This document shows, piece after piece, positions 61,024 through 63,992 of a stretch of 64,000 bases of DNA. Each line of letters opens with the position of its first letter. Position 1 is the stretch's first letter. The DNA is from Escherichia coli (GTDB lineage Bacteria; Pseudomonadota; Gammaproteobacteria; Enterobacterales; Enterobacteriaceae): the NCBI RefSeq assembly GCF_003334405.1, contig NZ_QOWM01000016.1. One strand, 5' to 3'. The translations under genes and the position numbers were made by a program. Below the pieces are notes generated by a model, which had not been told where the DNA came from, made no database searches, and was given only the letters and a program-made list of their open reading frames with translations.

Positions 61024-61263
61024 GCCGGTCCTGTGAGTTAATAGGGAATCCAGTGCGAATCTGGAGCTGACGCGCAGCGGTAAGGAAAGGTGCGATGATT
61101 GCGTTATGCGGACACTGCCATTCGGTGGGAAGTCATCATCTCTTAGTATCTTAGATACCCCTCCAAGCCCGAAGACCTGCCGGCCAACGTCGCATCTGGT
61201 TCTCATCATCGCGTAATATTGATGAAACCTGCGGCATCCTTCTTCTATTGTGGATGCTTTACA
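61024..61263 (+). promoter_or_regulatory. adenosylcobalamin riboswitch (btuB 5' leader)
   Basis: About 240-nt leader beginning GCCGGUCCUGUGAGUUAAUAGGGAAUCCAGUGCGAAUCUGGAGCUGACGCGCAGCGGUAAGGAAAGGUGCGAUGAUUGCGUUAUGCGGACACUGCCAUUCGGUGGGAAGUCAUC..., recognised as the classic E. coli btuB B12 element; the 5' boundary is approximate. Confidence 0.85.
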
Positions 61264-63108
61264 ATGATTAAAAAAGCTTCGCTGCTGACGGCGTGTTCCG
61301 TCACGGCATTTTCCGCTTGGGCACAGGATACCAGCCCGGATACTCTCGTCGTTACTGCTAACCGTTTTGAACAGCCGCGCAGCACTGTGCTTGCACCAAC
61401 CACCGTTGTGACCCGTCAGGATATCGACCGCTGGCAGTCGACCTCGGTCAATGATGTGCTGCGCCGTCTTCCGGGCGTCGATATCACCCAAAACGGCGGT
61501 TCAGGTCAGCTCTCATCTATTTTTATTCGCGGTACAAATGCCAGTCATGTGTTGGTGTTAATTGATGGCGTACGCCTGAATCTGGCGGGGGTGAGTGGTT
61601 CTGCCGACCTTAGCCAGTTCCCTATTGCGCTTGTCCAGCGTGTTGAATATATCCGTGGGCCGCGCTCCGCTGTTTATGGTTCCGATGCAATAGGCGGGGT
61701 GGTGAATATCATCACGACGCGCGATGAACCCGGAACGGAAATTTCAGCAGGGTGGGGAAGCAATAGTTATCAGAACTATGATGTCTCTACGCAGCAACAA
61801 CTGGGGGATAAGACACGGGTAACGCTGTTGGGCGATTATGCCCATACTCATGGTTATGATGTTGTTGCCTATGGTAATACCGGAACGCAAGCGCAGACAG
61901 ATAACGATGGTTTTTTAAGTAAAACGCTTTATGGCGCGCTGGAGCATAACTTTACTGATGCCTGGAGCGGCTTTGTGCGCGGCTATGGCTATGATAACCG
62001 TACCAATTATGACGCGTATTATTCTCCCGGTTCACCGTTGCTCGATACCCGTAAACTCTATAGCCAAAGTTGGGACGCCGGGCTGCGCTATAACGGCGAA
62101 CTGATTAAATCACAACTCATTACCAGCTATAGCCATAGCAAAGATTACAACTACGATCCCCATTATGGTCGTTATGATTCGTCGGCGACGCTCGATGAGA
62201 TGAAGCAATACACCGTCCAGTGGGCAAACAATGTCATCGTTGGTCACGGTAGTATTGGTGCGGGTGTCGACTGGCAGAAACAGACTACGACGCCGGGTAC
62301 AGGTTATGTTGAGGATGGATATGATCAACGTAATACCGGCATCTATCTGACCGGGCTGCAACAAGTCGGCGATTTTACCTTTGAAGGCGCAGCACGCAGT
62401 GACGATAACTCACAGTTTGGTCGTCATGGAACCTGGCAAACCAGCGCCGGTTGGGAATTCATCGAAGGTTATCGCTTCATTGCTTCCTACGGGACATCTT
62501 ATAAGGCACCAAATCTGGGGCAACTGTATGGCTTCTACGGAAATCCGAATCTGGACCCGGAGAAAAGCAAACAGTGGGAAGGCGCGTTTGAAGGCTTAAC
62601 CGCTGGGGTGAACTGGCGTATTTCCGGATATCGTAACGATGTCAGTGACTTGATCGATTATGATGATCACACCCTGAAATATTACAACGAAGGGAAAGCG
62701 CGGATTAAGGGCGTCGAGGCGACCGCCAATTTTGATACCGGACCACTGACGCATACTGTGAGTTATGATTATGTCGATGCGCGCAATGCGATTACCGACA
62801 CGCCGTTGTTACGCCGTGCTAAACAGCAGGTGAAATACCAGCTCGACTGGCAGTTGTATGACTTCGACTGGGGTATTACTTATCAGTATTTAGGCACTCG
62901 CTATGATAAGGATTACTCATCTTATCCTTATCAAACCGTTAAAATGGGCGGTGTGAGCTTGTGGGATCTTGCGGTTGCGTATCCGGTCACCTCTCACCTG
63001 ACAGTTCGTGGTAAAATAGCCAACCTGTTCGACAAAGATTATGAGACAGTCTATGGCTACCAAACTGCAGGACGGGAATACACCTTGTCTGGCAGCTACA
63101 CCTTCTGA
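61264..63108 (+). CDS. btuB: TonB-dependent outer-membrane vitamin B12 transporter
   Basis: ORF 61219..63108; ATG at 61264 gives the 614-aa [38 protein letters not shown]... protein; TonB box and C-terminal Phe. Confidence 0.97.
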
Positions 63109-63910
63109 ACCACGTCCCACCGTGCTGGTGTTTGACTCCGGCGTCGGTGGGTTGTCGGTCTATGACGAGATCCGGCATCTCTTACCGGATCTCCATTACA
63201 TTTATGCTTTCGATAACGTCGCTTTCCCGTATGGCGAAAAAAGCGAAGCGTTTATTGTTGAGCGAGTGGTGGCAATTGTCACCGCGGTGCAAGAACGTTA
63301 TCCCCTTGCGCTGGCTGTGGTCGCTTGCAACACTGCCAGTACCGTTTCACTTCCTGCATTACGCGAAAAGTTCGACTTCCCGGTTGTTGGTGTCGTGCCG
63401 GCGATTAAACCTGCTGCACGTCTGACGGCAAATGGCATTGTCGGATTACTGGCAACCCGCGGAACAGTTAAACGTTCTTATACTCATGAGCTGATCGCGC
63501 GTTTCGCTAATGAATGCCAGATAGAAATGCTGGGCTCGGCAGAGATGGTTGAGTTGGCTGAAGCGAAGCTACATGGCGAAGATGTTTCTCTGGATGCACT
63601 AAAACGTATCCTACGCCCGTGGTTAAGAATGAAAGAGCCGCCAGATACCGTTGTATTGGGTTGCACCCATTTCCCTCTACTACAAGAAGAACTGTTACAA
63701 GTGCTGCCAGAGGGAACCCGGCTGGTGGATTCTGGCGCAGCGATTGCTCGCCGAACGGCCTGGTTGTTAGAACATGAAGCCCCGGATGCAAAATCTGCCG
63801 ATGCGAATATTGCCTTTTGTATGGCAATGACGCCAGGAGCTGAACAATTATTGCCCGTTTTACAGCGTTACGGCTTCGAAACGCTCGAAAAACTGGCAGT
63901 TTTAGGCTGA
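63053..63910 (+). CDS. murI: glutamate racemase
   Basis: ORF 63041..63910; ATG at 63053 gives the 285-aa [40 protein letters not shown]... protein; overlaps the btuB 3' end by 56 nt in another frame. Confidence 0.95.
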
Positions 63911-63931
63911 TTTGGTTGAATATTGCGCGGT

Positions 63932-63992
63932 CAGAAAATTATTTTAAATTTCCTCTTGTCAGGCCGGAATAACTCCCTATAATGCGCCACCA
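63932..63992 (+). promoter_or_regulatory. rrnB P1 ribosomal RNA promoter with UP element
   Basis: AGAAAATTATTTTAAATTTCCT (A/T-rich UP element), -35 TTGTCA (63956..63961), 16-bp spacer, -10 TATAAT (63978..63983), GC-rich discriminator GCGCCACC, start near 63992; the rRNA operon itself lies beyond the window end. Confidence 0.9.

Follow-up and report, generated by a model that had tools for sequence, protein, structure and literature searches.

Comparative evidence that overlapping signals constrain codon choice at the btuB–murI–rrnB junction of Escherichia coli

Several of the elements that meet between btuB and the rrnB operon of E. coli belong to systems that have been described in detail. 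Ligand-dependent control of expression by the E. coli btuB cobalamin riboswitch is established in the literature, and the element found here is this archetype itself, with no difference. Most bacterial gene overlaps are 1 or 4 nt long and serve translational coupling. Longer out-of-frame overlaps on the same strand ('overprinting') and interleaved transcription units of the kind catalogued by SMRT-Cappable-seq offer further points of reference, as does the published rrnB P1 promoter, with which the sequence described below shares the same core promoter, UP element and three positions of Fis-type 15-mers. The locus lies at the 3' end of a 64,000-nt stretch of E. coli DNA (hereafter the window), where trmA on the - strand is followed by the btuB leader with its cobalamin riboswitch, btuB, murI and rrnB P1. 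It is the well-known btuB–murI–rrnB junction, and all of the elements named in the first-pass annotation of the window are genuine. They are also textbook E. coli biology and already known, so that their presence in itself changes nothing.

What the comparison of related sequences adds is a modest refinement of this known junction. The best explanation of the evidence is probably a junction with superimposed functions, at which btuB and murI are not only a coupled operon, and form two transcription units interleaved over positions 63025-63197. With less assurance, and still on the favourable side, we consider that the interleaved units are kept across the Enterobacteriaceae, that codon choice in about 215 nt (62978-63193) is set by four functions, that murI is insulated, and that the hairpins described below are a previously undescribed conserved RNA element. 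Judged from patterns of sequence conservation, codon choice at the btuB–murI–rrnB junction is constrained by overlapping signals, and along the 3-kb stretch as a whole at least six functions would be superimposed on coding sequence.

The btuB coding sequence (CDS; 61264-63108, + strand) specifies the TonB-dependent vitamin B12 receptor, of 614 amino acids, and murI (63053-63910, + strand; start as in RefSeq) specifies glutamate racemase, of 285 amino acids, with a sequence identical to that of PDB 2JFN. Both match NCBIfam equivalog models above cut-off (btuB, also assigned by RefSeq, NF007926 with 1112 bits and a cut-off of 836; murI, NF002034 with 513 bits and a cut-off of 408), hence both frames encode real proteins. 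The comparison set consists of 81 Enterobacteriaceae sequences (80 besides that of the window), which represent one family and were analysed with statistics that ignore phylogeny. All of the relatives in the protein homology search have at least 85% identity, and the architecture was followed within the Enterobacteriaceae. Synonymous diversity is expressed as observed/expected, normalised by amino acid, and its null distribution comes from same-size segments of btuB and murI (null windows). Window positions were converted to MG1655 coordinates with an offset of +4,102,375, checked against the Term-seq rows at btuB -75 and +40.

Transcription of btuB would start at 61023 and produce a 240-nt leader carrying the B12 riboswitch. 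A promoter scan identifies a -35 element (TGGACA, 60988-60993) and a -10 element (TAGCAT, 61012-61017) on the + strand, with a 9/12 match, and the start itself corresponds to MG1655 position 4163398 in SMRT-Cappable-seq data. The region singled out in the first-pass annotation begins at 61024, at most 1 nt from this published start. Its placement of a riboswitch ahead of btuB is borne out by the RefSeq riboswitch annotation and by Rfam model RF00174, which matches 61009-61198 on the + strand over model positions 1-189 of 189 (87 bits; gathering score 31.5; E 4e-21). The aptamer is 66 nt upstream of btuB, on the same strand and within the leader. Term-seq revealed riboswitch-associated 3' ends at btuB -75 (window 61189) and +40 (Adams et al. 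2021). These ends, taken together with the constrained first 20 codons of btuB (synonymous observed/expected of 0.42), fit a control region that reaches into the CDS.

The 3' end of btuB and the 5' end of murI overlap out of frame by exactly 56 nt (63053-63108, + strand), with the first base of each murI codon read as the second base of a btuB codon. The coordinates thus match exactly the 56-nt overlap, with a murI start inside the btuB 3' end in a different frame, that had been noted at first. The overlap is 56 nt long in 80/81 sequences, and the murI start ATG (63053) is kept in 81/81. An in-frame upstream start (63041), which would yield a protein of 289 amino acids, was considered as the ancestral murI start and rejected; ATG is found there in only 2/81 sequences and ACG in 79/81. 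The final 56 nt of btuB would double as murI codons 1-19 in a different frame. The MurI family profile begins at residue 24, after the part encoded by the overlap, and this part is an N-terminal extension that is specific to the lineage and not included in the conserved racemase fold. Synonymous observed/expected in the overlap is 0.08 in both genes, below every null window. A hairpin predicted inside the overlap (H0, 63065-63095, + strand, -12.6 kcal/mol) is compatible with all sequences, and the near-invariant sequence there gives covariation no power. On the opposite strand, an open reading frame of 63 amino acids (62987..63178) that coincides with the zone of conservation was rejected as a gene candidate because its start codon is not conserved and internal stops occur in most species. 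In none of the 80 sequences does an antisense frame stay open across this zone.

The suppression of synonymous diversity spans 62978-63193 and extends well past the overlap, because of a murI promoter embedded in btuB and two hairpins located in murI. Values for btuB at about 62978-63052 (0.36) and for murI codons 20-45 (0.53) are again below all null windows. Protein conservation was rejected as the cause, since fully conserved murI segments elsewhere have values of 1.05-1.19.

The murI promoter and the 28-nt 5' UTR that follows it (62978-63052, + strand) lie inside the btuB CDS. The promoter contains an extended -10 element, TGGTAAAAT (63009-63017, + strand), in which TGn directly precedes a good -10 hexamer, and this element is identical in 79/80 sequences. 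SMRT-Cappable-seq reports a primary transcript start at 4165400, which is window position 63025, supported by 121 reads in which murI is the only gene covered in full. This published start is 8 nt after the -10 hexamer and within the 6-9 nt expected. The mapped start base is a C, slightly unusual at 8 nt past the -10. Transcription of murI would proceed from its own extended -10, TGGTAAAAT, starting at 63025 with a 28-nt leader, all within the btuB CDS; murI, it appears, is equipped with a separate promoter and does not depend on btuB. A synonymous change in btuB from GGT to GGC would turn the -10 element TGGTAAAAT into TGGCAAAAT. A literature search on the murI promoter or the btuB terminator returned nothing relevant.

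Two hairpins with covariation follow the overlap on the + strand. The first (H1, 63116-63151, murI codons 22-33, -23.3 kcal/mol) begins 8 nt past the btuB stop, and the second (H2) occupies 63167-63193 with -14.1 kcal/mol. In H1, the pair 63124/63142 is GC in 53 sequences, CG in 9, AU in 7, GU in 3, UG in 1 and some other combination in 2. In H2, the pair 63172/63188 is CG in 44, UG in 23 and UA in 8 and is never unpaired, and the pair 63170/63190 is AU in 65 and GC in 6. Across the alignment 98.4% of hairpin cells are paired. Changes on both sides of a pair were counted in 40 cells, compared to 10.0 ± 3.7 in shuffles (none of 500 was as high), and controls in which the structure was slid along the alignment had 0-3 such cells. 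The folding energy of the hairpin region has z scores of -4 to -5 relative to synonymous recodings in most species tested, with control segments near 0. Invariant G-U pairs in H1 fit the + strand RNA only. Among known RNA families, the only matches within 62900-63300 were to eukaryotic lncRNAs and snoRNAs, below gathering scores and at chance level.

The 3' end of the btuB mRNA has been mapped 4 nt after H2. The transcript listed by SMRT-Cappable-seq extends from 4163398 to 4165572 (window 61023-63197, + strand), with read-through in 0/21 reads, in one low-depth dataset obtained by a method that favours long molecules and may miss rare or short read-through. No 3' end within murI is listed by an independent Term-seq study (Adams et al. 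2021), and the end at 63197 is not confirmed there. H2 is followed by CAUUACAUUUAUG and not by a U-run, and a terminator scan found no match at this location. We do not class H1 and H2 as a canonical intrinsic terminator, though the predicted G+C-rich stem and the mapped 3' end fit one. The btuB mRNA would end at 63197, just 3' of two conserved hairpins (murI codons 22-47), and this end may be formed either by termination or by trimming back to the hairpin.

The same hairpins could instead serve murI, through mRNA stability or early translation, for example by keeping low an enzyme that is harmful in excess, in which case the btuB 3' end would be a by-product, such as that of exonuclease trimming to a stable stem. 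Located at +92 to +169 of the murI mRNA, whose first 176 nt fold better than shuffles (z = -3.0), the hairpins are suitably placed for such a function, but ribosomes translating murI would unfold them anyway. H2 lacks a U-tract and the Term-seq list has no 3' end there, in line with this view; yet the mapped btuB end is only 4 nt past H2 with zero read-through, and H1, which begins 8 nt beyond the btuB stop codon, is placed where 3'-end structures typically occur. A role confined to murI seems rather unlikely to us, and we favour hairpins that define the 3' end of the btuB transcript.

A transcript that starts at 63025 and covers murI only, combined with a btuB transcript that ends at 63197 without read-through, supports two interleaved units over a coupled operon, and interleaving in turn argues against vitamin B12 control of murI. 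In the published full-length transcript table, which is one low-depth dataset, btuB and murI are not carried together on a transcript from the upstream promoter. In addition, a natural isolate carries IS2 inserted in btuB and has an intact murI. By implication, the first-pass annotation made murI expression dependent on btuB, with the consequence that repression of btuB by B12 would lower murI. This dependence is unsupported in view of the murI-only transcript, the btuB end at 63197, the conserved promoter and hairpins, and the IS2-bearing isolate. Instead, the essential murI would be largely insulated from B12 repression.

A classical coupled operon, in which murI is expressed mainly from the btuB promoter, its translation depends on btuB ribosomes and B12 lowers MurI, has to be weighed against these data. 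Both genes run in the same direction and overlap, the terminator scan finds no consensus intrinsic terminator between them, and btuB-murI is regarded as an operon in recent literature and in databases; the murI-only primary transcript from 63025 and the btuB transcripts that stop at 63197 (read-through 0/21) speak against such an arrangement. A predicted hairpin (63019-63057) would hide the murI start codon in long transcripts, where btuB translation could open it, and co-transcription could occur under other conditions. The conservation of the murI promoter and of the 3' hairpins nevertheless points the other way, and murI is essential, yet E. coli grows in the presence of B12 and a wild isolate has IS2 in btuB. 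A classical coupled operon is therefore improbable in our estimation. The essentiality of murI is taken from the title of Doublet et al. (1993), as it is given in the literature citing that work.

Further downstream, the UP element and core promoter of rrnB P1 would lie 22-82 nt past the murI stop. The elements, all on the + strand, are an A/T-rich UP element (CAGAAAATTATTTTAAATTTC, 63932-63952), a -35 element identified by promoter scan (TTGTCA, 63956-63961), a -10 element (TATAAT, 63978-63983) that is separated from the -35 by a 16-bp spacer and with it forms the best promoter match in the region (11/12), a GC-rich discriminator (GCGCCACC) after the -10, and a +1 at the A at 63992. The murI stop (63908-63910) corresponds to -84 to -82 of the promoter and is 22 nt from the UP element, 46 nt from the -35 and 82 nt from the +1, which agrees with the 20-80 bp at which rrnB P1 had first been placed. 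In a near-identical genome, 16S rRNA is found 374 nt after the murI stop, a position beyond the end of the window. An rrn P1-type promoter is present at the same aligned position in 72/72 related sequences whose contig reaches it, and the UP-element region is A/T-rich in all relatives. Between murI codon 283 and the -35 the spacing is constant at 54 nt, apart from ten sequences with 53 nt and one with 55 nt. The stop of murI, by contrast, shifts among the sequences, so that MurI has 283, 284, 285 or 293 amino acids; in genera with the 293-amino-acid form, murI extends across Fis site I as far as the UP element.

Fis sites of rrnB P1 are centred at -71, -102 and -143 (PMC2885671). In the window these centres correspond to 63921, 63890 and 63849, and a Fis-type 15-mer carrying the G at -7 and the C at +7 is found around every one of them. 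Site III (GAACAATTATTGCCC, 63842-63856, centre -143) is in murI codons 264-268 and site II (GCTCGAAAAACTGGC, 63883-63897, centre -102) is in codons 277-282, while site I (GGTTGAATATTGCGC, 63914-63928, centre -71) is intergenic in E. coli and coding where MurI has 293 amino acids. The earlier suggestion that the Fis region overlaps the murI 3' end is correct for sites II and III, which are inside murI, and fails in E. coli for site I. The last ~25 murI codons would carry sites III and II, at which Fis binding and activation are as described in the literature. The Fis motif is retained in 84% (site II) and 88% (site III) of the other 80 sequences, compared to 6-70% for nine chance matches to the motif elsewhere in murI. 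The -7 base of site II, which occupies the third position of a codon, is G in 80/81 sequences, the C at +7 of site III belongs to a Pro codon that is CCC in 70/79, and G1 and C15 of site I are kept in 71/72.

Synonymous observed/expected is 0.41-0.46 at Fis site II (murI codons about 277-283), below about 710 null windows, and 0.63 in the last 20 murI codons, below every null window. At site III it is 0.84, at the 6.7th percentile, with no significant suppression among the 81 sequences. The 3' end of murI thus has an excess of synonymous conservation, and the initial proposal of coding sequence under dual constraint is upheld by the values for the overlap (0.08), site II (0.41) and the last 20 murI codons (0.63).

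The tail of murI is probably constrained by Fis binding. Causes unrelated to Fis or rrnB P1, such as demands of the protein or of codon usage, DNA curvature, or gene conversion among rrn operons, would account for murI 3' conservation only with low probability. Diversity was normalised by amino acid, and conserved segments of the MurI protein elsewhere are unsuppressed, which is contrary to an origin in the protein. The A-tract in site II could act by DNA bending, Fis recognises a degenerate consensus, the drop in synonymous diversity at site III (0.84) is not significant, and the control motifs number only nine; against this, the three motifs are exactly at the published footprint centres and the -7 and +7 bases at third codon positions are nearly invariant. 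Gene conversion was rejected, because sequence common to other rrn operons begins only at ~63924, outside murI.

Taken together, these observations provide direct evidence, from sequence comparison, that synonymous codon choice in two essential-pathway genes is limited by regulatory signals in DNA and RNA. This matters for genome recoding and synthetic genomes, since nominally 'silent' substitutions within 62978-63193 or the last ~25 codons of murI probably have consequences. The data indicate that two overlapping transcription units describe btuB-murI better than the operon given in databases; with such units it would be understandable that an essential cell-wall gene is located downstream of one repressed by B12. 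The locus is also a natural example of a protein, MurI, whose non-conserved N- and C-terminal extensions lie over neighbouring signals, with a stop that drifts across a promoter region of fixed length.

With respect to published rrnB P1, our comparison adds the fixed spacing between murI codon 283 and the -35 and the drifting murI stop. The overlap resembles overprinted bacterial gene pairs in that its 56 nt encode parts of two real proteins, with hardly any synonymous change in either the btuB or the murI frame, and in that the overlap-encoded part of MurI is an N-terminal extension outside the conserved fold. It departs from most bacterial overlaps in its length and in that murI has a promoter of its own within btuB. 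The btuB 3'-end hairpins differ from a canonical intrinsic terminator by the lack of a U-tract. The arrangement is most readily likened to interleaved units in SMRT-Cappable-seq-type catalogues, with the murI promoter inside btuB, the hairpins of the btuB 3' end inside murI, and 173 nt shared by the two transcripts. In contrast to the catalogued cases, the ends of the btuB and murI transcripts are backed by family-wide conservation of the -10 element and by hairpin covariation.

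The final 3 kb of the window holds the trmA(-)/btuB/murI/rrnB P1 junction of E. coli. Each of the 5,426 complete E. coli genomes has a match to the region 60900-64000; in approximately 375 of them no match spans 80% or more of the query. RefSeq annotates, in order, a cobalamin riboswitch, btuB, murI, and 16S rRNA. The cobalamin aptamer lies at 61009-61198 (Rfam, 87 bits versus a gathering score of 31.5), btuB at 61264-63108 (614 amino acids; NF007926, 1112 bits), and murI at 63053-63910 (285 amino acids; NF002034, 513 bits; the same sequence as PDB 2JFN), with exactly 56 nucleotides (63053-63108) shared by the two genes. 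The rrnB P1 core at 63956-63983 (TTGTCA-16-TATAAT, 11/12) is the top match of a promoter scan. Its +1 is the A at 63992, its UP element occupies 63932-63952, and the murI stop codon is at -84 to -82. The published Fis centres of this promoter, -71, -102, and -143 (PMC2885671), each fall on a Fis-type 15-mer: site I (63914-63928), site II (63883-63897), and site III (63842-63856). Rfam, NCBIfam, the promoter scan, and the Fis 15-mers thus place every element named in the first-pass annotation where it was proposed. Its overlap of the Fis region with murI applies to sites II and III; site I is outside the gene in E. coli.

The junction was compared with 80 Enterobacteriaceae loci from one scan of species-representative genomes, whose murI genes are 76-96% identical to that of the window at the nucleotide level. 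The same murI ATG is present in 80 of 80 loci. An in-frame ATG at 63041-63043 would yield a 289-amino acid MurI; this codon is ACG in 79 of 81 sequences, the ATG being confined to the window and one further Escherichia sequence, and therefore we consider 63053 the real start. The btuB stop sets the 56-nucleotide overlap in the window and 79 of 80 loci, the sole exception having a broken btuB frame. In L062 and L038 (the loci of Citrobacter amalonaticus AUH_CA_2023_1 and Intestinirhabdus alba) btuB is broken or truncated and murI is intact, which could reflect either real pseudogenisation or assembly error. An rrn P1-type promoter follows murI in all 72 sequences whose contig reaches far enough (71 loci and the window). 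Codon 283 of murI and the -35 are separated by 54 nucleotides in 61 sequences, 53 in ten, and 55 in one, and within this fixed frame the stop drifts to give proteins of 283, 284, 285, or 293 amino acids. In the genera with the 293-residue form (loci L017, L021, L034, L036, L059, and L070) the spacing stays at 54 nucleotides and the stop is 21-22 nucleotides before the -35, so that all of Fis site I is coding and the reading frame reaches the UP element.

Following the check proposed in the first-pass annotation, synonymous codon diversity was measured per alignment column and normalised for amino acid. It was then set against all windows of equal size in the two gene bodies, a null drawn from the same alignment and hence the same tree. 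The sequences all belong to a single family, and the statistics were computed without an explicit model of the phylogeny. The observed/expected ratio is 0.08 in the overlap in both the murI and btuB frames, below all null windows. The ratios for murI codons 277-283, which carry Fis site II (0.41; null minimum 0.66), and for the last 20 murI codons (0.63; null minimum 0.82), are likewise below every null window. At Fis site III the drop is not significant (0.84, 6.7th percentile of null windows). Position -7 of site II, a third codon position, carries G in 80 of 81 sequences; at site III the proline codon CCC supplies the C at +7 in 70 of 79. The full Fis motif is retained at site II in 84% and at site III in 88% of the other sequences, whereas nine chance matches to the motif at other places in murI are retained in 6-70%. 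Sequence common to the other rrn operons begins only at approximately 63924, which excludes gene conversion among rrn operons as the cause of murI tail conservation. The low ratios and motif retention support the proposed dual constraint on coding sequence. The overlap shows it strongly, Fis site II clearly, and site III in motif retention only. The first ~20 btuB codons (61264-61325) also have a reduced ratio (0.42), and Term-seq places 3' ends at btuB -75 (61189) and +40 (61304) (Adams et al. 2021); both are compatible with a riboswitch control region continuing into the btuB coding sequence.

Unexpectedly, synonymous suppression reaches well outside the overlap. It begins in btuB at approximately 62978 (0.36 over 62977-63052), leaving the synonymous sites of the ~75 nucleotides upstream of the murI ATG (62978-63052) nearly frozen, and continues in murI to codon 45 (0.53). 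Protein conservation is not the explanation, since the ratio in fully conserved segments elsewhere in MurI is 1.05-1.19. An antisense ORF coinciding with this zone is not conserved and was rejected, and an Rfam search of the zone gave no family match. Within btuB, an extended -10 element, TGGTAAAAT (63009-63017), is identical in 79 of 80 sequences, and synonymous sites directly 3' of it do vary. SMRT-Cappable-seq in rich medium detected a primary transcript, MG1655 4165400-4166543, with 121 reads at its start, that fully covers b3967 (murI) only (Yan et al. 2018; PMC6131387 supplementary tables). With the window-to-MG1655 offset of +4,102,375, fixed from the Term-seq rows at btuB -75 and +40, this transcript starts at 63025, 8 nucleotides past the conserved hexamer and 28 before the murI ATG. 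Its end (approximately 64168, beyond the window) lies past rrnB P1 and P2, 116 nucleotides before the mature 16S 5' end. RNase III cleaves the 16S leader at roughly this point, which would mean that murI transcripts are processed together with pre-rRNA. A hairpin is also predicted at 63019-63057, where GCCA and CUGUUCG would pair with GAGACAG and UGGC in a sequence too invariant for covariation. It would sequester the murI Shine-Dalgarno-like sequence and AUG. Its outer stem begins upstream of 63025, so that only RNA transcribed from the btuB promoter could form the complete structure.

Two further predicted hairpins, H1 (63116-63151, -23.3 kcal/mol) and H2 (63167-63193, -14.1 kcal/mol), lie in murI codons 22-47. 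Across 80 sequences 98.4% of cells are paired, and 40 cells are changed on both sides. Shuffles give 10.0 +/- 3.7 such cells, with 0 of 500 reaching 40, and a control with slid partners gives 0-3. The pair 63124/63142 joins two third codon positions 18 nucleotides apart (GC 53, CG 9, AU 7, GU 3, UG 1, other 2), and the pair 63172/63188 is never unpaired (CG 44, UG 23, UA 8). Invariant G-U pairs assign the structure to the plus-strand RNA. For most of the species tested, the native region folds with a z of -4 to -5 against versions recoded synonymously for the same peptide, and 0 of 200 such versions reach its stability; control murI segments give z near 0. Each arm of H2 carries a GATC (Dam) site (63169-63172 and 63188-63191, 19 base pairs apart). 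In species with compensatory changes in H2 these sites are lost and the pairing is kept, and thus pairing rather than Dam methylation appears to be the conserved trait.

A second SMRT-Cappable-seq transcript, found in M9 medium, spans MG1655 4163398-4165572 and fully covers btuB only, with 21 reads at its start, 10 at its end, and none passing through (Yan et al. 2018; PMC6131387). In window coordinates it runs from 61023, the btuB start, to 63197, 4 nucleotides past H2. The independent Term-seq study lists no 3' end within murI. H2 is not followed by a U-tract, and for that reason we do not class it as a canonical intrinsic terminator; the btuB 3' end could equally arise by Rho-dependent termination and subsequent trimming back to the hairpin.

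Taken together, btuB and murI look like a pair of transcription units interleaved over 63025-63197, with the promoter and leader of murI embedded in btuB codons and the 3'-end structure of btuB embedded in murI codons. This arrangement argues against the coupling of murI to the btuB riboswitch that the first-pass annotation implied. That interpretation is thus partly supported: dual constraint holds, and dependence of murI on btuB is unlikely. In the wild isolate E. coli RM10410 (locus L082, 1297-2619) an IS2 in opposite orientation, ~630 nucleotides into btuB, splits the gene into two pseudogene fragments and leaves murI and the riboswitch intact, which is consistent with interleaved units. 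The approximately 375 genomes without a match to at least 80% of the query could include other btuB disruptions. The transcript ends come from a single dataset that has few btuB reads and favours long molecules, and some read-through may occur.

The foreign signals fall in the lineage-specific ends of MurI: alignments to other glutamate racemases of solved structure cover only the part from approximately residue 20-26 to 233-267. The junction elements themselves are already known, and their novelty is low. The literature still terms btuB-murI an operon. The reading as interleaved transcripts and the covarying hairpins within coding sequence are a modest, testable refinement.
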